Below are positions 4,800 through 24,493 of a stretch of 24,493 nt of DNA, piece by piece. Source of the stretch: Alloascoidea hylecoeti (lineage: Eukaryota). The stretch is taken from NCBI GenBank assembly GCA_001600815.1, contig BCKZ01000009.1:62001-86493 (forward strand), given 5' to 3'. Under the pieces are notes generated by a model that ran no database searches, was not told the origin of the DNA, and was given only the letters and a program-made list of their open reading frames with translations. A program made the translations under genes and the position numbers. How positions within the stretch are numbered: position 1 is the first letter of the stretch; each line of letters begins with the position of its first letter.

Positions 4800-6519
4800 T
4801 TGAACAATTTTTTGAACAATTTTTTGAATAGTTTTATTAAATAAGGTCAATTCATATTTACTACTTTAAAGCCATGTTTTATAAATCGTAGAGTGTGAAA
4901 CCGCTAATTATAAACTTGTTGAATATTTAAAACAAATCTTGAAATTAGGACAATAATGTTCCTAATCATGAATCGTAAACTATTTTTTATAAATATGTAG
5001 CCTAGTTGGTGAAAATATGCTCTCTCCGTGAGTCGTGAATCAGCCATTTAATGTAATGGGTGTAAGATCCAGTCAGTACTGCAATGGGAACAAGTTTTTA
5101 ATACGTTAAATACAAAGTGAGCAATTTCCTTCTCATTTAAAATATTATCACTATCTCAACCATTTAATTTTTAATCTTTTATGATTTTTATCTAAGGTTT
5201 GGGCCAATTTTCTCACCTCTAAACTTCTTTGGATTATTAATTACTTTTTTACAATGAGCACTACAAACACTAATTTCTCTTTCCTCAAATTTCAAATCCA
5301 AAAGCTCCAGTCAATACCTGTGTGCATAATCATATATATCATCTCCAATGGTCAGAGCTACATTATTTACTACATCCAAAAGGTAAGCGAAGCACTCAAT
5401 CACACATCTCATACTTTAAATGAAACCGGTATGAAGTTACGGGTAAGCAATGTATCTATTCTTTGGTTTTTGTCACACATCTTTAATGTTTCTTTTTTTC
5501 TACACGCTAGATGCGCATTACTGGCTAACACTAGTGAAGACCGAAGACAATGGGGGTCCCTTATTCATCTCTAACATCAAAGAGGGTCGGACCTCAACCA
5601 TTTCATGCTACCCAAATGTTTAGTTCACCTTTTCCAAGTTCTGGTTTTCCTGTTTTATTTTTTTTTCTCGTTCTCTCTTTTCTGTATTACGAGGTTGCCA
5701 CCAAATGCTCAACATATAAAAGGTCTACTTCCAGGTCAAACATCCACAGTTAGCTACACAAGGTGTAACTTATCAAGCACCATTTACCACACACATCGCT
5801 TGATGCACATTCCTACCATCCACTTCCGGCCACTGCCATAGGTTTTACGTGTGTGTGTGTAGATGAAAGTTTTGAAAAAGGAAGAACCTTATATATAATA
5901 AAGTTTATACTGGTACATGACTTTCTTTGAAAAATGTAAACCGTATATAGAGGAACCATTATTATAGTAAATATCAATAAAAATAGAATACCTTAGTATC
6001 TTTTTTTCTTCGATAAATTAGTTTAATGAATTGAAAGATGGTCTAAATACTCTACCTCTCTACCTGTGCTGGATATTGACTAATTAAATCCCATCTAACG
6101 CTAATTAATTTCCGGCACATAAAAAAAAAATAGTTTTCAAATACCCTGTAAGCAATTTAATGGTCTCACATAGCACTACCAAATGTTTCTAGGTAATTAT
6201 GCTAAATATATATCTGCAGGATCACTAATTAGATTCTAAAGGGAAGGCTAATAGATATACGGCACGCAGATTAACTCCCAGACTTATCGCCAATAATTTT
6301 CGAAAATAGCGCTATTAATAGGTGTGGAAGGACTTTAAGAAAGATTTAATTACACCAATTATTCATATATTATTTAAATTTCTTGTAGACTATACGTAGT
6401 CACCATATCTATATATAAGAAAAAAACACTTTCAAATATTATATACTCCGTTCCCTAAATATATTAAATGGATCAATAATCATATTTTTTATTTAATACA
6501 TGAATAATTTCATTTATTG

Positions 6520-6738
6520 TTTCTAAATTTCTAATAGTTATTGAGTTTTGTTTTAATAAACTATTGAAAATCATTAAACGTAAAATATTAAGATTTTTTC
6601 CTTGAGAAGAATTAATATTGGATACTTCTGATATATTATGATCAAGATGTTCCTTTGATAATCCAAGAGCTTCTGCAACACATTTAACAGAATTGATATA
6701 ATTATCAATACGTCCATAAGATTCTATATCCTTTAATC
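6520..6738. repeat. Diverged direct repeat, copy 2 (partner 7582-7796)
   Basis: Colinear matches such as AAAATCATTAAACGTAA, TTGAGAAGAATTA, GATACTTCTGATAT, ATAATTATCAATAC and TCTATATCCTTTAA occur in both segments. Confidence 0.9.
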
Positions 6739-6774
6739 CATAAAAATTTCATCATCCGATTCGGGCCATAATGT

Positions 6775-7025
6775 TTGTGGTTGATGTAGTTGATCTCGTT
6801 GTTGTTGTTCTAATTGTTCTAGTTGTTTATGTTGTTTTTGATGATTTTCTTCCAATTGTAATTGTTTTTGCAATCCTAGTTGTTGATGTTGTTGTTCTTC
6901 AGATTGTTGTAGTTGTTTTTGTAGTCCAAGCTGTTCTTCTACTAGTTGTTGACGTTGTCGTTCTTCCCGTTGCTTCATTTGTAGTAGTTCTCGTTGTTGT
7001 TCTTCCAGTTTTTGTTGCATTTGTT
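6775..7025 (-). repeat. CAA-rich low-complexity tract encoding a Gln/Glu/Leu-rich segment
   Basis: Imperfect (TTG)n on the + strand; translates QKQMQQKLEEQQ...QQLGLQKQLQQ...QQLGLQKQLQL with an internal repeat. Confidence 0.85.
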
Positions 7026-7581
7026 TTTGAATGTCTCCGTTGTTGATTTTTGCATCCGTAAAATCTTTTTTAAGTATTCCGATTTCTTCTTGAGCTGTAA
7101 GATATTTCTTTGGGGTTGCATAAAATGATTTTCCATCAGAACTAGGAATATCCAATATTTTATCATAATCAATTGCAGCTGTAATTGATACATTGGGATT
7201 TGGTGAATATTGAGTAACTGTCGCTTTCACGATCGTTTCATTTGAGTGTACCATTGATGCCTTCTCTTTCCTGAAAATATCAGGCTGTAGCAATGTAAGA
7301 TCCCCATTTAATGTTACTGTAGCTGAAGAATTAGTCCTTTTCAAATCATCCAAAGATTCTTTTAAATCAGAAACTTCTGAAGCATCTTTCAAGGATGAAG
7401 GTAACAAAGGCTTTAATTTATTATTTTTATTTAAATAAAATAATGATAAACCAGTAATTTTTCTCTTAATTATTTCACAAAACTCTTTATACACTGGATC
7501 ATAACCAGTTATAAATTTCAAATGAATTTTCCATACCAACTTCATATTTTTCAATAAAAATTTTAATAATTTCATTAATTG

Positions 7582-7796
7582 TTTTTAAATTTCTAATAAT
7601 TATTGAATCTTCTTTTGATAAACTGTTTAAAATCATTAAACGTAACATATGAAGGTCCTTTCGTTGAGAAGAATTAGATACTTCTGATATTTTGTAATCA
7701 AGATTTTCTTTTAATAATCTAAGTGCTTCTGCATTACATTTAATAGAGTCGATATATAATTATCAATACCTCCATAAGACTCTATATCCTTTAACC
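7582..7796. repeat. Diverged direct repeat, copy 1 (partner 6520-6738)
   Basis: Same colinear matches as listed for the partner copy. Confidence 0.9.
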
Positions 7797-8712
7797 TAAT
7801 AATTTCAGGGGGCGATTCCAATGCATTAACATTATAGGTAACAAACTCAATAGGAGTCATCTCAGACCAAGTAGATGACATATTATTATCAAAAACGTTA
7901 TCTGAAACAAAAAAAATTTCGTCAGATTTTGTTTTACCATTATTTTGGGATTCATCAGTGGATTTCATATTTGCGATGTAGAGTAAACTGTAAATAAGAT
8001 AAGGATGAATTTATAGCGGTGAGTTGTAACTTTCTTAGGTGGTAGTTATCAACTTGGAACTTGAAATCTCTACGTAATGATTATAGTAAAGATGTAGAAA
8101 GAATATAAATTGAGGATTGGACTGAACACCAAGTTTGATAAAATGTGGGGATAACTTTTAGGAGGACTGTTGTGATAAGATACCCTAGACGCAGATGGCT
8201 CCTGCAGTAGATAAACACACCCCAACTTTTATATTAAAAAGTAATATCTCCAAAATGACACAATAACATTTTTTTAAAATTGGTTATATAATTGAAGGAG
8301 TTGTGAAGATTATATCTGTATAAAAATGGTTCTGGTGTGTCGAAAATGGAAAAAAGGCGATGTTTTAAGCTTTTAAGGTTTTGCAAGTAAATGAGCAATT
8401 CGTATTGAAAATTATGATAAACAGTGTGACAGGACTGAATGGCGGATCTAAAGTGACACGGGATAATCTATCATGAACACGCTTAATTTATTTATAATTA
8501 ATATGATTATTGTCAAAACCAGGGATTGACCTCCAAAAACATACCTGCTGGTTAAAAAAGACAGGTTTATATCTCAATTTAGAAGTAGTCTTGAAATGAA
8601 GTGTTATAATAGAAAACACACAACTGAACCTATTGAACATAAATACACTAAATGCGGAGAACTCACCGAATTCAAAGAGGTTATTAAATAAAATATATAG
8701 ACTTTCAATATA

Positions 8713-9956
8713 TTATAAATGCTTTAAATATTTTTTCCTTAGACTAACAGTAAAATCATAGATTAAAACATCATAACTCTCACTAAAACCAACTAGCCTT
8801 TTCGAATCAACATATTTTAAAGGACGCCAATTTAAATTTAGATCTTAATATGAAGTTTCTGGGTCGTTAAATTCTTTAAATAATTTTGGATCATTTAAAT
8901 TCCAAATCTTGGCAATCGAAATGAGTTTATTATTAATAAAAATGCCTACATCATCTCAATCTGATAAAATATTTGGTTCATTTGTTTGTAAATTGAAAAC
9001 TGTTAGTTTTTTGCTGTAGCTAACAAATAAGTATTGATCGTTCACTGCAAAGATACTCAAAGCATCAAATCGAAATTCTTGGATTATTTGACCAGTTTCA
9101 ATATTCCAGGTTCTTATAACCCCAGTATCTTTACTATATATGATACCCATTATGTACGTAAATATCATCATTAATCCATACTTCTCCTTTTATACGGAGA
9201 TGTAAATTAAACTTTAGTTGATGTTCCAAATTATCAAGATTAAGACTTGATTTCCAAACCCCAATATATTCACCATTATGACATACAATATAATCATTGT
9301 ATAGATCGAGGCCTCTAATATCATATCAATAAAATCTGAATATGGAAATATCAGACGACCTATAGCTTTAAAGTTTGGTAACTCCCAAACTATACAAGGA
9401 CAATCCCTTGAACCAGAAATCATATATTTATCATTAATATCTTGTAATACAACATCACCGGAATGAGTCATGGCATCACTCTTTTCTTTTAACTCCGACA
9501 ATTATATTTCTGAAATTTGTTGAAAATTGTATGGTTTTCCCAATACCTTTAAAAATTGATAAGTTTCATTATTCTGAACTCTTATTGTGCAATCGTCTGA
9601 ACCAGTTATAATCCAGTTTTAAAAACTTTAACTACCACGTTTGGCCAGAATGACCTCTTAATTGATGCTTTGTAAATTTACTCTTTTTTCCAATTTGATT
9701 TCAATAGATAACGTTCTTTGTATAATCCTTACCAAGAATCGGTTTCTGAATCATTATTGTATTTCCAATATTTTTCATCTTTAAACTTTGATTTCCATAT
9801 ATCATCATTTTCAGCTATGTGTTTCCATGATTTAGACACTCTTCTACAATTAAGTAAAGTTTTTGGTGACAATTCTATGAATATTATTTGAGATATTTCA
9901 TAAGGGAGATCGGAAACAGAATCTAATGTTATCTTAAGATTTTTGTGTAAGGACAT
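8713..9956 (-). pseudogene. F-box/WD40 paralogue A, full-length but disrupted
   Basis: F-box (SDLPYEISQIIFIELSPKTLLNCRRVSKSWK) followed by a premature TAA at 9729-9731 and several frameshifts. ORF fragments 9214..9501 and 8956..9171 match paralogue E, and the gene ends YLKHL* at 8713 like E. Confidence 0.92.
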
Positions 9957-10057
9957 ATTGAAATTGCAAATGGTAACTATATTCGCAATTGTTAATAATA
10001 CCGTGACTTTTCAAATAACAAAAGAAAAGAAGAAGAAAAGGGGGTTATGAACTTTTT

Positions 10058-10074
10058 TAAATACCTATTTCTGT
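10058..10074 (-). promoter_or_regulatory. Upstream motif shared by F-box/WD40 paralogues (ACAGAAATAGGTATTTA on the coding strand), putative core promoter
   Basis: Identical 17-mer at 10058-10074 (upstream of A) and 16803-16819 (upstream of E); related sequence at about 13232-13280 upstream of C on the + strand. Confidence 0.55.
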
Positions 10075-10452
10075 GAAATCTAGTAAACGTGGTGTACGAA
10101 TAGACGTGTTTGTGAGTGATCTTAGTTTAAGAACTCCCACCACCCCATAAATAACATTTTACTATATCAACCACCAACACACCAAAAAATATGTATTAAC
10201 TGAATATTTTATATGAATAAACTACTCATCCAAATAGATTCTTCTTACAATTTTCTATGCATTTCATTGTTTTTAATTGAATGTTGACGGGTTTTTTTCT
10301 TTTTTATCATGGGCCTGTTTTAGATCGTATTTATCTGGAGTGCAATAAGTTTTCCTGTTTCAATCTTATAGATCATTGTTGGGCATTATCGCCTTGCCTC
10401 TCCTACCCTTACTTTATTGTGTTTTTTGGGGTTTAAAGAGCTATACCCTGCT

Positions 10453-10563
10453 AAACTTTTTAATGCTTAAGAGTATTAGGAAAACTAATCCATGAACTTT
10501 CAAGACACTTATTCTCAGACACTTGGATATTAATGATAAAAAATTAGTTTTTGGTTCATTAGA
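10453..10563 (+). pseudogene. Short relic of an F-box/WD40 paralogue (G)
   Basis: Encodes CLRVLGK and, after a deletion, LDINDKKLVFGSL (compare CLRVLGKP and LDINDKYLVSCSL in paralogue B). Confidence 0.65.
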
Positions 10564-11632
10564 ATATTAGGAATAAATAAGTTTTTGAAAGTAGTATTAA
10601 TTAGATCTAATAAATCTCATAATTCTGATGATATAGAAATATAAGTGTATTCTTGTAAATGTTGTTATCGCGCGAGCGTTTTTCTACGATGTAGCCCATC
10701 TAGCTCATCAATACAAATCTTAAAATAAAACTTAAAGCATTCTAAGAACACCTAGAAACCATATTGATATAACCTCTATCTTTGTACAATAATCTAATAC
10801 TTTTGAAATCCAAGCGCTGGGGTGAATAATGAAAATTGACGAGAAATATAAATTTGTTTGATTGACCACAAAACGCTAAAACAGTTGAAACTCAAAAGTT
10901 TTCCTCTTTTTAGCACCACCAATTTATCACCCGTAATCTCAAATGGAAAGTACAAGAACAGTAAATAATAAGAGTAGTATACCCTCCTGTTAATTATTAA
11001 GAGGCAAAAGACGAAACAAGCGGGTGCAATGTCGTGAGATCGTAAGATGGACGGGGTATAATCGTACTTCTACGTACTTATAAAGACGTAGAATATTTTA
11101 TTTACCTATAAACTTCCATATTAAACCTACTACTAATAATAAATACCTTTTGATTAAAGAACTTTTGAATGGAAAGTGGATAATTTTGGAGTGTTATAAT
11201 AGAGAGAAAGGAAGATAACTTCAAAGAGCAGAATGAGGCCGTGAGTGTAAAGAGAATATGAAGCTAATTGATTATGTGGTATAGGAAAGCTGTCAAAATA
11301 ATTGATATCTCAAAATTTCAAGCTTGCTTCCAATGCAGATTATCACGAGAAGAATCTCATTAAAACCAAAAGTTTCCTCTATTCTTCAAGAGAAGCAGCT
11401 CTCTTTATTTCCTAGATTATTGATTTTGTGTGTAAATAGTTGTGTCTCTAGACTATCGTGTTTTCATGGGTTGGTATAAAAGTTGGTTATGGAGCGTTTC
11501 GGCAAGGAACCATAGAACGGCAAGAGAACAAGAAAATAGTAACAAATTCCACCATGTATTGCATATGATAATAGAGCTCTCATTAAAGAGGTTGTTAAGC
11601 AAAATATGAATTTTCATTAGGTTATAAATGTT

Positions 11633-12895
11633 TTAAGTATTTTTTCCTTGGCTAAAATCATAAATTGAAACATCACCAGAATTTGTTAAAAAAGCTAGCC
11701 TTTTCGAATCAGCTTCGATTGGTGAAGAACTCATATATATACTTTCATTTAAATTATCTAAATCTTTAAATGCTTTAAATAATTGTAGGTCATTTAAGTT
11801 CCATATGCTAATTAAATCATATTGGAGTTGAGTCGAAATGAGTTTATTATTATGTATACATAAACTGTCGGCATATGAACCTGATAAAATAATCGTTTCA
11901 TGTGTTTGTAAATTCAGAGCCTTTATTTTGTGATCGTCACTAACAAATAAGTATTGATCATTTACCGCCAAGCAATTCACTCCATAAAATGGAAAATAGC
12001 CCATACTTTGACCTGTTTCAATATTACAGGATATAATTCCTCCATATTCTCCAAGAAACATACCATATATGATACCATTATGAATACAAAATTGATCAGC
12101 CCAGTTTTCTTTTATACGGTGTTGTAAATTAAGCTCATATCCCCAATTATCAAGACTTAATTTCCAAACCTCAATATTTCTACCACAAAATGCAATATAA
12201 TCATTGTATAGAGCGACTCTACTATCAACACCACCTTCTGGATATATGAACAGACACTCTATTGGGTCAAAATTTGGTACGTCCCAAATAATAAAAGAAC
12301 CATCTAATGAGCAAGAAACCAAATATTTATCATTAATATCCAAGGCTATAACGTCTCTTAAATGAGTCATGTCAACCATCTCAGTTGTTAACTCCTGAAA
12401 TTCAGATTCTGATAAATATGACTCTGAATGCTCAGGGTTAGGTTTCCCTAATACTCTCAAACATTTATAAGTTTTATTATCCCAAATTTTTATCGTGCAA
12501 TCTTCTGAACCTGTTATAATCCAGTCTTGGAAAAATTTAACACAACATGTATCGACATCATCACCATCTAATATATACTCTGTAAATTTATCATTTTTCC
12601 AATTTTGTTCTAAAAGAGAACTTTCCAAGAGATAACGTTCCTTAAATAATTCATACCATGAGTCAGGTGGGGAATTATCATTAGAGTAGTTTTCCCAGGA
12701 TTTTTCATCTTGAAACTTTGATTTCCATATATTATCATTTTCAGCCATTTGTTTCCATGATTTAGATACTCTGCTGCAATTAAGTAAAGTTTTCGGCGAC
12801 AAATCCAAGAAGATTATTTCATATATTTCATAAGGGAGGTCAGAAACAATATCGATTGTGAAATGAAGATTCTTAAGTAAGGAGTCCAAGGACAT
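11633..12895 (-). CDS. F-box/WD40-repeat protein, paralogue B (420 aa, open frame), putative SCF substrate receptor
   Basis: N-terminal F-box (SDLPYEIYEIIFLDLSPKTLLNCSRVSKSWK), helical linker WYELFKERYLLE..NW, WD40 repeats WIITGSEDCTIKIWD and YLVSCSLDGSFIIWD followed by degenerate blades. Confidence 0.92.
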   Translation of the reverse strand: MSLDSLLKNLHFTIDIVSDLPYEIYEIIFLDLSPKTLLNCSRVSKSWKQMAENDNIWKSKFQDEKSWENYSNDNSPPDSWYELFKERYLLESSLLEQNWKNDKFTEYILDGDDVDTCCVKFFQDWIITGSEDCTIKIWDNKTYKCLRVLGKPNPEHSESYLSESEFQELTTEMVDMTHLRDVIALDINDKYLVSCSLDGSFIIWDVPNFDPIECLFIYPEGGVDSRVALYNDYIAFCGRNIEVWKLSLDNWGYELNLQHRIKENWADQFCIHNGIIYGMFLGEYGGIISCNIETGQSMGYFPFYGVNCLAVNDQYLFVSDDHKIKALNLQTHETIILSGSYADSLCIHNNKLISTQLQYDLISIWNLNDLQLFKAFKDLDNLNESIYMSSSPIEADSKRLAFLTNSGDVSIYDFSQGKNT

Positions 12896-13301
12896 GCTGC
12901 TATTGTTTAATAATAATAATTACAATAACAAAGGTGAAAGAAAGGGTGACAAGTATGAACTTTATACCCCCTTTTATATAATCCCCAATCTAATCGATCC
13001 ATCTACGTGTTTGTTGGCGATCTACTTAATTTTACAGTAACCACTATCTACAATGAACTTCAAGTTGCTCCCTCGGTCAACTTGGTTTAAACTGTCTCCA
13101 CCTCACACACATGCATAACTAGTTAAATATATATATATATCAATTTGACCAATTTGAGTGACGCTGAATGATATTTGGTGGCCTAGACATTGTGATATAA
13201 ATATTACGCGCTTTGAGATTACCCACAAATATGTAGATTCTTACACCTCGTTTACTAGATGGCACAGAAATATTTATAACCACAATTAAGTAAAAAAAAC
13301 A

Positions 13302-14545
13302 GCTGATATATGGAAATCAAAGTTTAAAGATCAAATATCTTGGGAATACAATAATGGTGATTTGGAAACCGATACTTGGTGTCAATTATACAAAGAACGT
13401 TATCTATTGGAATCTAATTGGAAAAATGATAAGTTTACAAAACATGAATTAAGTCGTCAGAGTCTCGAAACATTTTGTATCAAATCCTATAAACACTGGA
13501 TTATAACAGGTTCAAAAGATTGTACAAAATTTTGGAATAATGAAAATTTTCGTTTAAGAATATTAGGAAAACCTAGCCCCGAGGACTCAGACTTAAATTT
13601 ATCAGAATATGAATTTCAGGAGTTAATGGAAGAGAGTGATGACATGACTCATTTAAGAGATGTTTTAGCCTTGGATATTAATGATAAATATTTGGCTTCT
13701 TGCTCATTAGATGGTTCTTTTATTAGTTGAAACGTACCAGATTTTAACCCAATAGATCGTCTTTTGTTCCTTCTCCTCCTTGAGCTTCACCAATTCTTGC
13801 ATAGTGTCAATTAGTTGTTTAATATAAATCTCTAAGCTCATTGTTGTGTGAGCGATTTAATGTGTTATAGGAAAATTATTTATCTATTCTCAGTTACTTT
13901 TCTAAAATGGATTTTTATCCACTATTTATATATCTAATTTATTTCTAGTCGAAACCTCAAAACGATTCAATCCTTGATTCAACCTTAATATTTCAACTTA
14001 ATAATCTAAACCCAATATCGTCTGATAATACCACAATCGTATCGGTTGATTTACATATAAGAGGCGTTGCTTTATATAATTATTATATTGTATGCTGTAA
14101 TACTGAATATATTGGGGTTTGGAAACCAAGTGTTGATAATTTGAAAAATCAACTAAAAATTAATTTACAACGCCGTATAAAAAAAGAAGGCTTGATTGAT
14201 TGTATTTGCATCCATAATGGTATTATATATCCCGGAATACTGTAAAGGGTCAAATAATCCAATAATTTTCGATTGGTCCTGTAAGTTGTTTTGCGGTAAT
14301 CAATACTTATATATCTTAGTGGTAACCAAACTAACGGTTTGGGGTCTACAAACAAATATAACAAATATTTTATCAGATAGAGGAGCGATCAGTTTATATA
14401 TAAGTAATAAAGTCTTTTTGGTTGATAATGTTTCTACTATCAAGATTTGGAATTTAAATGATCTAAGACTATTTAAAGAATTTAAAAATATATCCATAAA
14501 ACGTAAATTAAAACTATGGCCTACTTCAATTGAAGCTGATTCAAG
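13302..14545 (+). pseudogene. F-box/WD40 paralogue C: F-box deleted, two halves (13302-13770, about 14003-14545) separated by unrelated DNA
   Basis: Begins at DIWKSKFKD and has TGA at 13728-13730 where B has Trp. The second half reads GVALYNYYIVCCNTEYIGVWK...CIHNGIIY and IKIWNLNDLRLFKEFK...IEADS with frameshifts. Confidence 0.88.
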
Positions 14546-14555
14546 CTTCAAATAG

Positions 14556-15058
14556 CTTACTGTATAAAATGCCATTATGAATGCAAACCCAACCCATCCT
14601 TTCAGTTTATATACGATATTGAAATTTAAACTATCGTCGATGTTTCAAATTACCAAAACTTGATTTCCAAACTTCAATAGTAATATCACCATGAAATATA
14701 ATATAATTATTGTATATAACCACTTTATTTAGAGAAATTTCTTGTAATGATAATTGGGTCTCTTGAAATCTCATAGTTTGTTTTCCTAATATTCTTAAAC
14801 ATTGATAAGATTTAATATCCCAAATTTTTATCGTACAATCTCCTGAACCAGTTAAAATCCATTTTTCTAAAAAATTTAACAAAATATTTGGCGGTAGAAT
14901 GCCCATGCATGCTTTGTAAACTTATTGTTTTTCCAATTTGATTCCAATAGATAACGTTCTTTGTATATAATTCATACCATGAATCTGTTTCTGAATAATC
15001 ATTATAGTATTTCCAATACTTTTGATCTTTAAACTTTGATTTACATATATATCATCAC
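14556..15058 (-). pseudogene. F-box/WD40 paralogue D: truncated at both ends and internally deleted
   Basis: KSKFKDQKYWKYYNDYSETDSWYELY, ERYLLESNWK, WILTGSGDCTIKIWD, EVWKSS and CIHNGILYSK, with frameshifts and stops; the second WD repeat is missing. Confidence 0.88.
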
Positions 15059-15433
15059 TAGCTTTTCCCGCCGAGCTTAACAGTTTGTTTTGGACGATTT
15101 AGACATATACAGGAATTCCCGAATTTATACCCTCCAAAATACCTTTTCACGCATAATGTAATTAAAACACACCCAATATTTAATATAAAGCGTGTATCTA
15201 TCGAGAAACAAATTTATTGCCTAAGAAGTAGAAGATAAGGAAAATAAGTGTCGAAACCAAGCATTGGATTCCAAGAACATATTTTCTGGTTTTTCTTTTG
15301 GCAGCACTCAATTAATACGAAGTCTTGAAATGAAGTGTTAGAAAAAATAAAACTGAATTAATTGAGGATATATGTACTGAATGCGGAGGTCTCACCGAAG
15401 AGTTTGCTAAACAAATAATGAATATTCAATAGA

Positions 15434-16681
15434 TTATAAATGTTTTAAATAGTTTTTCCTTAAATTATCAGTAAAATCATAAATAACAACCTCGCCATGG
15501 GGAGCTAAAACAGCTACCCTTTTCGAATCAGAATCAACAGGAGGTTGAAAAGGATTCAAATATATTATTAATTCTTCATCTAGAGTTATTAAACCTTCAA
15601 ATTTTTTAAATAATTTTAGATCATTTAAATTCCAAATCTTAATAATATTAAAATCATAATAAACCGATATGAGTTTATTATTTTTTATAAATAAACTGTT
15701 TACACGATCTCGATCCGATAAAATAATTATTTCATTCGTTTGTAAACCTAAAACTTTTAGTTTGTAATTTTCATTAACAAATAAGTAATGATCATTTACT
15801 ACAAAACAATCCACACCATCAAATCGAAATTCTTGAATTATTTGACCAGTTTCAATATTCCAGGTTTTTATAAATCCAGTGTCTTTACCATATATAATAC
15901 CATTATGTACGTAAATACCACCAATCCACCCTTCTCCTTTTATACGGAGATGTAAATTAAACTTTAGTTGATGTTCCAAATTATCAAGATTAAGACTTGA
16001 TTTCCAAACCCCAATATATTCACCATTACAACATACAATATAATCATTGTATAAAGCGACACCTAATAAATATTTTGGTTCTGGTATTATCAGACGACCT
16101 ATTGCTTTAAAATCTGGTAATTTCCAAATAATACATGAATCATCAAACGAGCCAGAGACCATGTATTTATCATTAATATCCAGTAATATAATCTCACCGA
16201 AATGAGTCATGGCATCACTCTTTTCTTTGAACTCCGACAATTCAATTTGTGAAAATCTGAATTTTTCAAAAAAGTTTAGTGTTCCTAATACTTTTAAACA
16301 TTGATAAGTTTCATTATCCCAAATTTTTATTGTGCAATCGTCTGAACCAGTTATAATCCAGTTTTTAAAAACTTTAACACACGATGTTTGGGCAGAAATA
16401 CCAATTAATTTATGCTTTGTAAACTTATCACTTTTCCAATTTGATTCCAAGAGATAACGTTCTTTGTATAATTCATACCATGAATCGGTTTCTGAATCAT
16501 CATTATAGTACTCCCATGATTTTTGACCTTGAAACTTTGATTTCCAAATGTCATCATTACCAACTATTCGTTTCCATGATTTAGACACTCTTCTACAATT
16601 AAGTAAAGTTTTTGGTGGCAATTCTATGAATATTATTTGAGATATTTCATGAGGGAGATCGGATACGGAATCTAATGTCAT
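15434..16681 (-). CDS. F-box/WD40-repeat protein, paralogue E (415 aa, intact), putative SCF substrate receptor
   Basis: F-box SDLPHEISQIIFIELPPKTLLNCRRVSKSWK; WD40 repeats WIITGSDDCTIKIWD and YMVSGSFDDSCIIWK; ends YLKHL*. Confidence 0.93.
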   Translation of the reverse strand: MTLDSVSDLPHEISQIIFIELPPKTLLNCRRVSKSWKRIVGNDDIWKSKFQGQKSWEYYNDDSETDSWYELYKERYLLESNWKSDKFTKHKLIGISAQTSCVKVFKNWIITGSDDCTIKIWDNETYQCLKVLGTLNFFEKFRFSQIELSEFKEKSDAMTHFGEIILLDINDKYMVSGSFDDSCIIWKLPDFKAIGRLIIPEPKYLLGVALYNDYIVCCNGEYIGVWKSSLNLDNLEHQLKFNLHLRIKGEGWIGGIYVHNGIIYGKDTGFIKTWNIETGQIIQEFRFDGVDCFVVNDHYLFVNENYKLKVLGLQTNEIIILSDRDRVNSLFIKNNKLISVYYDFNIIKIWNLNDLKLFKKFEGLITLDEELIIYLNPFQPPVDSDSKRVAVLAPHGEVVIYDFTDNLRKNYLKHL

Positions 16682-17436
16682 ATTAAGATGTTTGTTTAAG
16701 GAGATATTGCAATTATATAAATGGTACCGTAGCTATATTTGTCATTGTCTCAATAATATTATGGGTTTTTGCAATAAAAAGTGAGAGTTATGATCTTCGT
16801 TATAAATACCTATTTCTGTCCAATCATAGTTAAGATGGCTTTACCACTCCAAAAAGGTCAATTGTATTATTTCTGTAATAGAAATCTGGATACATCTTTA
16901 GGGACTTTCACCTAAATTCATGAAGTCTGAATTGTTTAGTCCTCCAATCAAAGTCGGTACCGTGAAAGCTTCTTAACGAAACGAAAAAAACCGGCTCCAG
17001 AGGCTATACATATGTATACACTCCCAGAAAACAATCACAGTAGTAATTTATATCAGATTATATTAAGGACAAATAGAACTATTTATACAAGAATGATATG
17101 CATGTTCAGATCACTTTCAATTGGTATTTCAAGAAAAAAAGTTGACGTTAATAACAATTTAAATATAAATGTGAATTTTTTTTGGTGTTAAGTCTATATA
17201 AGGTTATTTAAATGGTCCATGAGAGAAATAAATCAGCTAAAACAAGAGGTAGTGTTCCATCATTGGAAGAAAAGCTGATACTGGTGTTGCCGTTAATTTT
17301 GTCATACTGTACATCATTAATTTTGCAATCGTGTGCTTAGGATAGTTGTAACTGATATATTATATATCTACTACAAAGTAACAATTGTTCATTAATGCTG
17401 TTTCTATTCTGATATCTCGATTAATAATAATTAAAT

Positions 17437-17843: not shown

Positions 17844-19608
17844 CACTATTATTATTATTTTTAAAAAAATCTTTATCAAAATCATCATCAATTGTATTTT
17901 GTTGTTTATGTTTATGATTACATTTATCTAAATTATTAAAACTTTCAATTATTATATCATCTTTATTAAAACCAATTATTAAATCATCATAAATTAATCT
18001 TTTTAATGATTTTGAAATATAATTAAATTTAATATATTGTATAAAAGGTCTTAAAATAAAAGCACACTCTTTCTTATTTGTAATTGTGGATGATGATAAT
18101 GATTGAGAATTTAATGGTTTAGGTGGATTTGTTTTCTTTAAACGATTTGATTCATGGGATGATAATAATAATAAATGAAATAATAAGTTAATTAAATCAG
18201 CTCTATTAACATTTTTTTTATTATTTTTATTATCATTGTTATTGTTATTTTTTTGAGTATTTGATGTTGATGTTGAAATTTTAATTTTTGATAATTGATT
18301 TTTAATACCAGCATCAGAACCTAAATCAGATTCAGTTTGAGAATCCAATTCAATATTAATATTATTATTATTATTTAATTCTAATGAAGTCGAAGATTCT
18401 ATTGATTCAACAAATTCAATTTCTAAAACTTCATCAAATAAATCAATTATTATTTTTTCAGAATTTATAATAATTTTTAAATTTGATAATAATAATTTTG
18501 ATTCTTTTAATAATTCATGATATAATTCTTCTTCAAATAATATATTTCTTTGTCTTTCTATAATATCACCAATATCATATTCATCTTCTTTATTATCATT
18601 TGAATTTATTGTTGTTGTTGTTGTTGTTGTTCTTGTTCCTGATGATGTAGATGAAATTTTATGTATTGGACCTAATATTTTATCAGCATTTATATTAGAT
18701 TCACAAGATTTTATTAATTCTCCATTAAATCTTGTAAAAATTGAAACTTTAACTACTTTTGCAGATGTTTGATTTTGATTTTGATTTGAATTATTATTAC
18801 TTTCATTATTATTATTATTATTATTATTTGGTTTAAAAATAATTGAACCAGTTTCAGTTCTATGTAAAATTGCAATTCCTTTATTTATATAATTAGAACC
18901 AGAATCTCCAAAACCATATTTTATACCAATTAAATTTGATTTTTTATTTGAATTAGAAGTTGATGAATTAAATTTAAATAATACTTCATTTTTAATTGTT
19001 GAAATTTTATAAATATAATCCCAATAAATTTTTTCTTTTTTAATTTCATTTAATAACCTAATACTTGAATCTTTTAAAATTGAAGCAGATTTTTCTAAAG
19101 ATTGTAATTTTAAGCCAAGACCGACACTTGGGTCATCATCAGCTACAGGTATAGGTTGTATTCTGTCAGTTGTTAAAGAAGCAATTGGGACATTCATTTT
19201 TAAATGAGGTGACATTGATGATCCACCCACAGTTGGACGAGCAGCGGATATTAATAAAGATATGTAATCTAGTGATAGTGATGATTCATTTTGAGCAGAT
19301 TGGATTGCTTTTAAAAGATTTGATCTTTTTTTATTATATTGTTCTTGTTCAGTACCGTCTTCATTTTCATTTTCATTTTCATTAGAATTGGTTTGGTTGT
19401 TTTGTAGTGAGGTTTCTATTTGGACATTTTCATTTTCGTTTGAGTTGTTGATAGTTTCGATTTCGTTACGCAACGATTCCTCGGTCAGATTCGTGAACGA
19501 GCCTCTTTCAGCTATGATGCGCGGTATTATGAGATTAAGAGGGATGTCAGCTTCAGAGACATCGTCGGACTTCCCCAACAACTCCAAAGACAGCTGAATC
19601 TCTCTCAT
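17437..19608 (-). CDS. SRB4: Mediator of RNA polymerase II transcription subunit 17 (723 aa, with Asn/Thr-rich insertions)
   Basis: IPRIIAERGSFTNLTEESLRNEI, AQNESSLSLDYISLLIS, SMSPHLK..VP..SL, EIKKEKIYW, IKYGFGDSGS and RNILFEEELYHEL..E are characteristic Med17 blocks. Confidence 0.92.
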
Positions 19609-19740
19609 TACGCTGGAGGTGGTGGAGGTGGTGGAGGTGGTGGAGATGGCGACGGAGGAGTGTGCGGTTAGTTACACATGTGCTGAGATATACCGCTATA
19701 AAGCCGAGGATCACACTGAGACTCTGCACTGCACTACACC
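19609..19740. promoter_or_regulatory. 132-bp bidirectional promoter between MED17 and the cation exchanger
   Basis: Divergent ATGs at 19608 (-) and 19741 (+); contains TATAAA near 19697-19702 and a GGAGGTGGT repeat. Confidence 0.65.
19614..19660 (+). repeat. (TGGAGGTGG)x3 plus degenerate units, G-rich microsatellite
   Basis: tggaggtggtggaggtggtggaggtggtggagatggcgacggaggag read directly. Confidence 0.9.
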
Positions 19741-22146
<2,406 letters not shown>

Positions 22147-23014
22147 AGAATTTATAAAGGAAATAAAAAAAAAATTGGAAATAAAAAAAATTGGAAAATT
22201 GTTAATGATATAAAATATAAGTATATACACCAAGTATTGTAAATACATTGTTAACGAAATCTGTTCATTCACTGTTAAATCTGTAATATAACATCTTTAA
22301 AATAATTAATATTTCTTTAATAAAAAATCTTCAAACTCCAAGTTTAGGACATTCAAGAGTTCTTCAATTTTGGTTAAGTTAGTGATTATTGTGTCTTTGA
22401 TCCTTCAAACATTACTGATATCGATAGAGATTGTATAAGATGAATTATCTATAGGATTTCCTAGGACGCTCATATGGTCTTAATGCCGACGTAATGGGTA
22501 TTGGTCTATCATTGCAATTGGACCTATTCTTTCAACCTGACTAACCTCTCTTGGATTTCTTAATTTCTTGATTTCATTTGACTGTTAAATATATCCACAA
22601 CATTTTAAGCTGAAACAACAGAGAGGATTAAGTTAAGAAATAAACTCGGTTACGCTTTTATAAAGGGGAGCATCTATTAATATTCTTATTTCATAGGCAA
22701 AACAATTCTGTAATTACAAAGTTTCTGGGATTAACTGGTTTTCCATTTTTGAACATTCAAACCTAATATTCAAACGTAATAACCTTGCAATTAGTTATCC
22801 TAAAAATCATTTTTGTAATTGCTCTCTCAAGAGGAATAACAATATCACTTTATCACATTGGTGACCATGCCCAGTTGAAAAGCTTAGAATATTAAAACTT
22901 GTGAATCATAATGGTATTATTTAATAATATAAGAAGATTCTTAATTAGGTTTAAATTGATAATAATTATAAGAAAATAGTGTAAACACTTAGTCGTGAAT
23001 GTATAGTGTCTAAC

Positions 23015-23330
23015 AGACCTGAAATGAAATATTTCATCATTCTTTTCGGTCAGTTTCAATAAATAATTTGTTCTTACTGACATACTCATTGGAAGATTAT
23101 GGTTTGGTTTTCCTAATACCCTTAAACATTGATAAGTTTCATTATCCCAAATTCTTATTGTACAATCTTCTGAACCACTTATAATCCAATTTTTAAAACA
23201 TTCAGCACAGCGTGTTAGGACAGAATGGCATATCTATGCTTTGTAAATTTATCATTCTTCCAATTTGATTCTAAATGGTAACGTTCTTTGTATAACTCAT
23301 ACCATGAATCAGTTTCGCCATTATCATTAT
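23015..23330 (-). pseudogene. F-box/WD40 paralogue F fragment (linker and first WD repeat)
   Basis: NDNGETDSWYELYKERYHLESNWKNDKFTKH, a frameshift, then CAECFKNWIISGSEDCTIRIWDNETYQCLRVLGKPN...EKNDEIFHFRSV. Confidence 0.88.
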
Positions 23331-23391
23331 TGTCTTTCAATATTCTATTTTTTAATTGTTCTTCTATTTCTTCTTTTTTTTTTCCTTTAAC

Positions 23392-24141
23392 CTATGGCTT
23401 ATTGCTAGAGAATCCAAAATTGATAAAGTGAATATCTCCATCAGAACTCTCGATTAAATCTTCTTTTCTGATATCTCCATGGATAATATTTTGAGAATGT
23501 AATTACTCTTAAATTTTAAATTTGAGGCTGCTTTTTTCCAATTATCATCATTTGTAAAATCAGGTTTCTTAATACCTTCCATCTTCATGATGCTTAGCAG
23601 AATCAGATATGAATTCAATAGATTCAAAACAGATTACGTCTGGAACAAAATTAATCGGATTTTTACATTTCTGTATCAAGCAATAGGTGTCATATTCAGT
23701 AACAAAATGTTCCATACATTTCTTTGGCATATTATCAATATCATCAGTTCCTTGATTCGCGCAATAAGGATCATAAATTTTTAATATGTATTGGGAATTT
23801 TCTTCCAATGGAAAGGAAGATACACCATTATCATCACTCATATGTTCTAGGGTTGTTTTTGAAACCCTAAGAACTTGAGAGTGATACTCTCTGAGCGTGA
23901 ATATTGCATCATTAATTTCTCTAATTTCAACGATGACAAAGCATCTTTATTTAAACATAAATTTCTTCGTATAAAATATTATTGTTTTTCCGTCCAAATG
24001 CTTATTTAAAAGATGTGTGATCTCGGTACGGTATTGTTTAGCTTCTCTTTTTGCTTCCGTAGCATTAATTAGCTGTGCATCTGTAAGAGTTTTCATTGAA
24101 CTTTCCACCTTTTCTTGTGAATGTCTTTCGAAAAATTCCAT
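23392..24141 (-). pseudogene. Decayed protein-kinase-like gene (small atypical kinase fold)
   Basis: MEFFERHSQ...KFMFK* (stop 23947-23949) continues in frame RCFVIVEI...HSQVLRV...QYILKIYDP...FVTEYDTY...FVPDV...GRY. After frameshifts it reads LHSQNIIHGDIRKEDLIESSDGDIHFINFGFS (catalytic-loop HGD and a DFG-equivalent). Confidence 0.75.
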
Positions 24142-24214
24142 AGCCTTTCTTATGAAAATGATTGAATAAAAAAAAAGTAAGTGTTTCTGTTTGATAACTA
24201 CATATTTTTGTAAG

Positions 24215-24493
24215 GATATAGGTCTTAATTTGGATACATCTGATGAATCAACTTGTAAAAGGACGCTTCCAGTAGCATATTGTGACGCGTCGCAGAAAAT
24301 GACACATGGCTTTGAAGTGTCAAAAGGAATTAATTGGTGTAATATTATATTTTTTAAATTTTGATATTCTGTTTCACATTCTACAGGCCATTTAAAAACT
24401 GCATTCTTTTGTAGTAAATTGGTTAAATTCCACGTTTTGTCTCCAAAGTGTGGAATATTTTTCATATAATATCCAATATGTCCTAATAGAACT
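24215..24493 (-). mobile_element. Ty3/gypsy LTR-retrotransposon pol fragment (RT connection region into RNase H), truncated; continues beyond the window
   Basis: LLGHIGLYMKNIPHF...LTNLLQKNAVFKW...CETEYQNLK...PCVIFCDASQYATGSVLLQ...LRPIS matches the gypsy consensus FLG..GYYR.FIP.F...LT.LL.K...F.W...LK...DAS..A.GAVL.Q...RPI. Confidence 0.88.

Follow-up and report, generated by a model that had tools for sequence, protein, structure and literature searches.

This locus raises the question of what a cluster of related F-box/WD40 genes, some open and others broken, is doing among ordinary genes of a budding yeast, and whether it is a set of diverging substrate receptors or the product of duplication and drift. 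The window, by which we mean the whole 24,493-nt stretch that was analysed (contig 9, positions 62001-86493, of the 24.8-Mb, 136-contig genome of Alloascoidea hylecoeti), contains two intact F-box/WD40 genes, here called B and E, four or five broken copies, and a fragment at 23 kb. A sequence-only reading of this DNA had proposed a lineage-specific repertoire of Skp1-cullin-F-box (SCF) receptors under diversifying selection. We give a probability of about 0.6 to a related answer: the copies are a set of SCF substrate receptors that differ in specificity and have been selected for change at the residues that bind the substrate.

The family and its parent gene

The copies were located by searching the window with the two intact genes, by tBLASTn and BLASTN. 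When E was compared with its own genome, the 101 scored of 333 candidates gave 114 matches, which merge into at least 94 loci on 23 contigs, forming 53 clusters of which 37 hold a single copy; family locus counts are lower bounds throughout. The array in the window is a small part of this genome-wide family. Of the 33 long open reading frames (ORFs) that were looked at, 29 passed as intact. The 29-gene alignment omits L025 (unknown bases), L032 and L033 (altered C-termini), and L036 (a fused start and a deletion), and the partial ORFs L029 and L037-L039 stand outside the analysis. A search of 5.8 billion proteins returned 21 hits, 20 of which were 99.3-100% identical to copies of the same genome, the last being a weak WD40 hit. 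Because the hits are nearly all same-genome copies, the family is confined to the species as far as sampled. An Atlas search with E found generic F-box/WD clusters only. Looking for transcripts in three unrelated metatranscriptome runs yielded only three short spurious contigs, and a search of the genome for FRQ gave no match, nor did its controls. The family is therefore lineage-restricted and evolves by birth and death, with pseudogenes, as the sequence-only reading had supposed. Its description of the F-box and strands as near-invariant was overstated: B and E are 55% identical (E=4e-126), intact pairs range from 44 to 78%, and the ratio of non-synonymous to synonymous rates (dN/dS) of the F-box is 0.31-0.45.

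The family tree is burst-like, with many pseudogenes and mosaic copies. Identical runs longer than in permutations (p<0.005) were found in 17 of 406 pairs, where about 2 were expected, a count inflated by conserved blocks. The pairs L009/L011, L022/L026 and L015/L034 look mosaic, and in the last of these, identity is 86-96% across the F-box and linker and 58-77% in the propeller. Across the first 130 bases of 33 flanks, the copies have upstream sequence in common but neither a poly(A) nor a terminal repeat, and within that range copy-by-copy retrotransposition or a carrier transposon was rejected. CTG aligns with leucine in the family (one column holds 12 CTG and 17 other leucine codons), so the standard code is used, and an altered CUG code was rejected for the family.

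In a profile search covering 1.84 billion representatives, the hits that came after the family itself and long WD-repeat proteins were F-box/WD40 proteins at E ~1e-68. The nearest Atlas clusters of one such protein (P0024) lie in Ascomycota and carry the automatic name sconB, and one fungal outgroup protein can be aligned in register to human beta-TrCP across blades 1-6; the outgroup proteins were identified by their alignment to beta-TrCP and by kept contacts. An AlphaFold2 (AF2) model of E had a mean predicted local distance difference test score (pLDDT) of 78.9, with seven blades by DSSP and a pLDDT of ~40-60 for the F-box alone. Compared with known structures, this model had beta-TrCP or FBXW11 at all of ranks 1-12 in Foldseek and ranks 1-10 in VIA-align, where the best Z was 29.6 (root-mean-square deviation 3.2, 313 aligned) and unrelated propellers reach Z 28.

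In a tree of 57 proteins, built by a quick method with SH-aLRT supports, the family forms one clade (100) in which L027 is the first branch and the other 28 copies group together (100). The family joins 24 fungal proteins (99), apart from the genome's own L045, presumably Met30-like, and L048 and L049, presumably Cdc4-like. E aligns to these three at only 21-30% identity, and orthology to Met30 or Cdc4 was rejected because the family falls outside them in the tree. Tree and alignments together indicate that all copies descend from a single fungal beta-TrCP-like gene, not from Cdc4 or Met30. The sequence-only reading had missed the parent, of which a founder-like copy survives. Neurospora FWD-1 and beta-TrCP are called homologues of Slimb in PMC10931572; we infer the label FWD-1-like for the parent. 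A horizontal origin is not supported, since the nearest outside proteins are fungal and the zuotin gene flanking the array is budding-yeast-like. In other organisms, the budding-yeast proteins most like this zuotin share no more than 65% identity with it, so the source is a budding yeast without a close sampled relative.

The fungal query P0025 retrieved L027 at E 7.6e-78 (37% identity) and the next copy at 2.9e-48, 30 orders of magnitude apart. L027, on contig 4, carries an 86-residue N-terminal extension (517 versus 431 amino acids). In the copies, the non-coding leader corresponds to the stretch of L027 coding sequence that lies immediately upstream of the Met where they start, with BLASTN matches to L010 and L014 (88-94% over 33-34 nt). 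The leader is thus decayed founder coding sequence, and the family most likely began as a 5'-truncated duplicate. Ten outgroup proteins (P0024, P0025, P0029, P0031, P0033, P0034, P0039, P0041, P0050 and P0064) share a conserved ESG-[IV]-[AV]-F-like motif just ahead of the F-box, which resembles the beta-TrCP degron and is a possible self-degron; it was not seen in L027.

PMC13097077 lists ten contacts between beta-TrCP and its degron. We mapped these through the beta-TrCP/outgroup alignment and scored nine, S448 being ambiguous: the fungal consensus at that site is Asn, and a gap lies close to it in L027. All nine are kept in L027, as the equivalents of Y271, R285, S309, S325, N394, R431, G432, R474 and Y488. 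The other 28 intact copies keep 0-3 of the nine (mean 0.93), B and E retaining one each. The copies are beta-TrCP-like by descent, yet judged by the pocket they are not functional members of the subfamily. [quoted passage not shown] Among the 24 outgroup proteins, 16 of these 21 columns hold one residue in at least 87% of sequences, and in the 28 copies entropy lies between 2.4-3.8 bits at every one of the 21. Where the parent lineage was most conserved, the family is now most variable.

Change on the propeller top face

We fitted self-written codon models, in MG and GY61 versions, to the 29 intact genes. Overall dN/dS was 0.62 (MG) and 0.40 (GY61). By region, again as MG/GY61, it was 0.45/0.31 in the F-box, 0.18/0.09 in the linker, 0.60/0.39 in the strands and 0.34/0.20 in the bottom loops, with 1.17/0.77 in the top d-a loops and 0.80/0.56 in the top b-c loops. 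Purifying selection acts on the F-box, the strands and the bottom loops (dN/dS 0.2-0.6), and outside the top face dN/dS is significantly below 1 on 23 of the 29 terminal branches, including those of E (0.39) and B (0.49).

Site models with a single synonymous rate gave twice the log-likelihood difference (2dL) as 279 and 217 for M2a versus M1a and as 212 and 109 for M8 versus M8a, with a fast class at dN/dS 1.9-2.6 that takes in 12-16% of sites. M8 sites at P>0.95 (MG) make up 38 of 106 top-face sites, none of 49 in the bottom loops and 5 of all 311 non-top sites; GY61 gave 30 top, 0 bottom and 5 non-top. The concentration of fast sites on the top face is solid. This is where the sequence-only reading had placed the variation, which is clearly not spread evenly. 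The comparison of M8 with M8a gave 2dL of 25, 86 and 112 when three segments were each given a separate tree, 43 when restricted to gap-free columns, and 214 once three mosaic copies were removed. A three-class test allowing double and triple hits gave 87.5, and other base frequencies gave test values of 135 and 185. At the 21 R1-2/R1/D-1 codons, here called hotspots, non-synonymous change runs at 2.2 times the synonymous rate of the whole gene, a value reached in 0 of 30 neutral simulations, and the 42 codons neighbouring the hotspots have a normal synonymous rate (0.94). Founder residues at the hotspots are retained at 0.13 against a neutral expectation of 0.26, and only 6 of 2000 simulations were as low.

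Several results weigh against selection for change. The top and bottom classes behind these counts were drawn by hand from WD40 topology and DSSP, not from coordinates, and after the M8 site list was known. When the synonymous rate was allowed to vary by site, 2dL was 17.4 (independent rates) or 11.7 (free grid), each exceeded by one of eight null simulations; on the free grid 17 sites still have P>0.9, all on the top face. A free synonymous rate gave the 21 hotspots a dN/dS of 1.13 (MG, p 0.46) or 0.73 (GY61), because the silent estimate there also doubles, and gave the two top-face classes 0.56-1.17; with third-position frequencies the hotspots were at 0.73-0.90. Simulated simple positive selection never produced a raised hotspot synonymous estimate (0 of 30), suggesting that the simple positive-selection model misfits too. 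In six close pairs, the ratio of non-synonymous to synonymous differences (pN/pS) was 0.85 on the top face versus 0.48 elsewhere, and the outcome of the retention test ceases to be significant once hotspots are assumed to mutate at 1.5 times the average rate (256 of 2000). Allowing triple changes absorbed the raised silent estimate (hotspot silent rate 1.04, dN/dS 1.57, 2dL 3.9), which points to whole-codon replacement, whether through selection for distant residues, short exchange tracts or loop misalignment. Positive selection (dN/dS >1) on the top face is likely but depends on the model, the signal being strong with one synonymous rate and marginal with a varying rate. The diversifying selection claimed by the sequence-only reading accordingly stands in the one-rate models and becomes marginal when the rate varies by site, with a pooled top-face dN/dS of 0.6-1.2.

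A proposed receptor set and its rivals

In the history that we propose, a beta-TrCP/FWD-1-like F-box/WD40 gene would have been duplicated without its N-terminal extension, an internal Met becoming the start, and the copy would have spread by tandem and dispersed duplication at the DNA level, many copies dying and some trading sequence with one another. The parent, L027, has kept the ancestral phosphodegron pocket and would still do its old job. The copies have kept the F-box, linker and propeller scaffold, so that each should still dock on Skp1-Cul1, and carry a top face that differs in each and has probably changed faster than neutral. Such receptors would bind substrates and send them to the proteasome for degradation. 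Docking of the copies on Skp1 is suggested by a model: residues 1-135 of E with canonical Skp1 scored 0.81 and the best control 0.00, on a test that 51 of 78 solved pairs pass and that 2 of 108 mismatched ones pass. Runs agreed in at least 84% of contacts, with a partner pLDDT of at least 77. Because Skp1/F-box complexes like this one have been solved, the pass may reflect memorised structures, and the model indicates likeness, not binding; the Skp1 binding implied by the sequence-only reading has the support of this model, with that caveat. As for targets, our guess would be fast-changing non-self or selfish proteins, for example those of mobile elements or of expanded families in the genome. 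A bolder version, which we consider doubtful, is a beta-TrCP-derived intracellular recognition library that destroys mobile-element, viral or selfish-killer proteins, amounting to an SCF innate immune or antidote system in Saccharomycotina; its dozens of receptors, with reshuffled top faces, would gain variation from tandem copies and pseudogenes by sequence exchange, and would have divergent Skp1 paralogues of their own to work with.

The top face could instead be drifting neutrally on a kept scaffold after loss of the ancestral ligand, the copies persisting for a role of the F-box alone (Skp1/Cul1 titration or dosage) or through frequent duplication in a repeat-rich genome. A pooled top-face dN/dS of about 1 with a free synonymous rate, together with the marginal outcome of models with synonymous rate variation, favours such drift, and other families in the genome have also multiplied and decayed (kinase-like, 28 matches; gag-like, 39 matches). 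Yet the hotspot codons run at about twice the gene-wide silent rate and their neighbours do not, and ancestral residues were lost there faster than neutral. Moreover, a decoy needs no 300-residue propeller, yet the strands and bottom loops are constrained. We regard neutral drift as rather unlikely; if the top face were merely drifting, the family would be a clear case of standard site models overstating selection.

The SCF receptor set has a special case, in which the copies are antidotes or suppressors directed against self-encoded poisons or selfish elements (toxin-antidote, spore killer or hybrid incompatibility). The KSS F-box proteins of Caenorhabditis tropicalis are a precedent, described in PMC12680543 as fast-evolving antidotes that degrade toxins through SCF, and the burst-like tree with its pseudogenes and mosaic copies would also suit. 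[quoted passage not shown] No fixed partner gene was seen here within ~1.5 kb of the first 30 loci, inspection of the match lists put the window's two repeated neighbours mostly away from family loci, and most clusters are single-copy, so that an antidote role seems improbable. The copies might also divide ordinary host substrates among themselves, by stage or stress and without conflict, as in the mouse Fbxw12 cluster. With the ancestral pocket still present in the founder, the copies would be free to take on new host substrates, and the genome holds many unrelated F-box genes and divergent Skp1 copies. Stable substrates should, however, fix pockets and keep genes, yet most loci are broken (29 of 94 analysed as intact), and we consider this partition very improbable.

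Setting the proposed receptor set beside known systems, beta-TrCP/FBXW1A, FBXW11, Slimb and FWD-1 have in common with the family an F-box, a linker and a seven-blade propeller. They are conserved genes with a fixed phosphodegron pocket, whereas 28 of the 29 intact copies lack both the pocket and the N-terminal extension. Met30 and Cdc4 have the same domain order and are kept in the genome as separate genes. In how it would work, the family is like the F-box arrays of nematodes and plants. Nematodes have expanded Skp1 genes, and here also there are several; their F-box proteins carry other C-terminal domains (FTH, FBA2) and number in the hundreds, and their expansions are reportedly also treated by Thomas in 2006. 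According to PMC8120010, nematode F-box expansions resemble the present family in size, birth and death, a conserved F-box and a fast substrate-binding domain. In this budding yeast the fast domain is a WD40 propeller that derives from a conserved regulator already known. The closest in architecture is the mouse Fbxw12 cluster, a tandem F-box/WD40 expansion with candidate selected sites in the WD40 substrate-binding channel; according to PMC3984280 it comprises about a dozen paralogues of another subfamily in one cluster, and its site signals are not significant. The present family, by contrast, occupies at least 94 loci on 23 contigs and has a surviving founder. A literature search, with most subscription papers outside its coverage, turned up no published account of a budding yeast with such a family.

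The view of F-box arrays as an intracellular immune or anti-selfish-gene repertoire comes mainly from nematodes and plants, whose hundreds of genes make targets hard to find. In this yeast about thirty receptors, intronless and of single origin, stand beside a founder with the known beta-TrCP pocket, so that bait, substrate and pocket changes are directly comparable, and the intact copies form a natural series of retargeted propellers.

Copies in the window, SCF genes and neighbours

Both intact genes of the window lie on the minus strand. B (11633-12895) encodes 420 amino acids, and E (15434-16681) encodes 415, with an F-box and seven WD40 blades. The F-box of each is above the Pfam cut-off (PF12937, PF00646); against the WD40 cut-off of 27 bits, B scores 38.6 and E barely passes at 28.4. 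An F-box at the N-terminus followed by a C-terminal WD40 propeller, modelled for E, is the layout of Fbxw-class SCF substrate receptors. The ancestral start codon of E (16703-16705) is mutated, and the next Met (16681) is still upstream of the entire F-box. The shared 5' leader of the family lies ahead of E at 16706-16786 (minus strand). Copy A (8713-9956, minus strand), found by tBLASTn and BLASTN, is a full-length pseudogene with F-box and WD40 regions, stops and frameshifts, and its nearest intact relative is E (80% at the nucleotide level). On the plus strand, a decayed 110-bp remnant at 10453-10564 covers the end of blade 1 and part of blade 2, and a remnant of the family's upstream region (13216-13272), with an 82% match to that of A, precedes copy C. 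C spans 13290-14564 on the same strand. Its first piece (13290-13760), nearest to B (77% nucleotide identity), runs from the linker to blade 2 with no F-box, and its second (13967-14564) holds blades 3-7 and is frameshifted. A 261-bp insert lies within C at 13760-14020, and because its 3' end repeats a decayed blade 2 piece, C may be two copies joined. Copy D (14556-15055, minus strand), tail to tail with C, has a 155-bp internal deletion and lacks its 3' part. Copy G (22982-23344, minus strand) is a frameshifted fragment from the linker to the start of blade 2. No F-box was detected in C, D, G or the 110-bp remnant, whose matches start at or after residue 44 of E. The sequence-only reading had counted six related copies in about 8 kb on both strands, two of them open and four broken, and a seventh near 23 kb. 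Six are indeed present in 8713-16705 if the 110-bp remnant is counted or C is taken as two, G is the seventh, and all the motifs that it quoted are found in the translations.

Elsewhere on contig 9 (113400-115600), L036:160-1644 has acquired in frame a new coiled-coil-like N-terminus and a deletion after the F-box, and has a database twin, P0017. Between the database copies P0001-P0018 and L003-L031 of this assembly there are only 13 amino-acid differences, of which 4 are on top-face columns, about that class's share of sites. A Pfam F-box search of the genome, in which 150 of 173 candidates were scored, gave 149 matches, 129 above the cut-off. The other F-box genes fetched (20 + 8) are mostly unrelated to each other, and a second large family was therefore rejected. 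Further F-box genes (L061-L080, L043, L047 and L050) encode 470-880 amino acids, most without a recognised C-terminal Pfam domain; L043, L072, L073 and L080 are weakly related, and L062/L063 (F-box with leucine-rich repeats) and L046/L068 are duplicated pairs.

Skp1 is represented by five full genes and a fragment, two of the genes being 96% identical and three divergent (44-65%). Three genes and the fragment (L055, L056, L059 and L060) stand in tandem at contig 14:584767-588446, and the others are at contig 19:128301 (L057) and contig 6:1131395 (L058). Seven cullin matches were found, at contig 5:21975-23994, contig 99:402-1730 and contig 7:786415-792823, one of them split into two parts, with stops or introns, and two of them N-terminal only in long frames.

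The genes flanking the array are ordinary ones, namely a patatin lipase, an ELP6-like gene, zuotin, MED17 and a Na/Ca exchanger. The window also contains two repeated neighbours, both on the minus strand. The one at 6300-8100 is a broken multicopy element with 39 DNA matches in the genome and an internal 270-bp duplication (6480-6751 and 7542-7807); an intact-looking relative, L085, encodes 458 amino acids and is presumably gag-like. The other, at 23569-24492, is a broken member of an expanded protein-kinase-like family (28 matches, with intact-looking frames of 636-684 amino acids), and a reverse-transcriptase RNase H piece lies ahead of it. The kinase-like family is a possible substrate class or co-expanding family. 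The window is AT-rich, and a GC-rich island with a short tandem repeat occurs at 19741-20070, at the start of the Na/Ca exchanger gene, GC content being 47% in 19001-20000 versus 15-31% around it.

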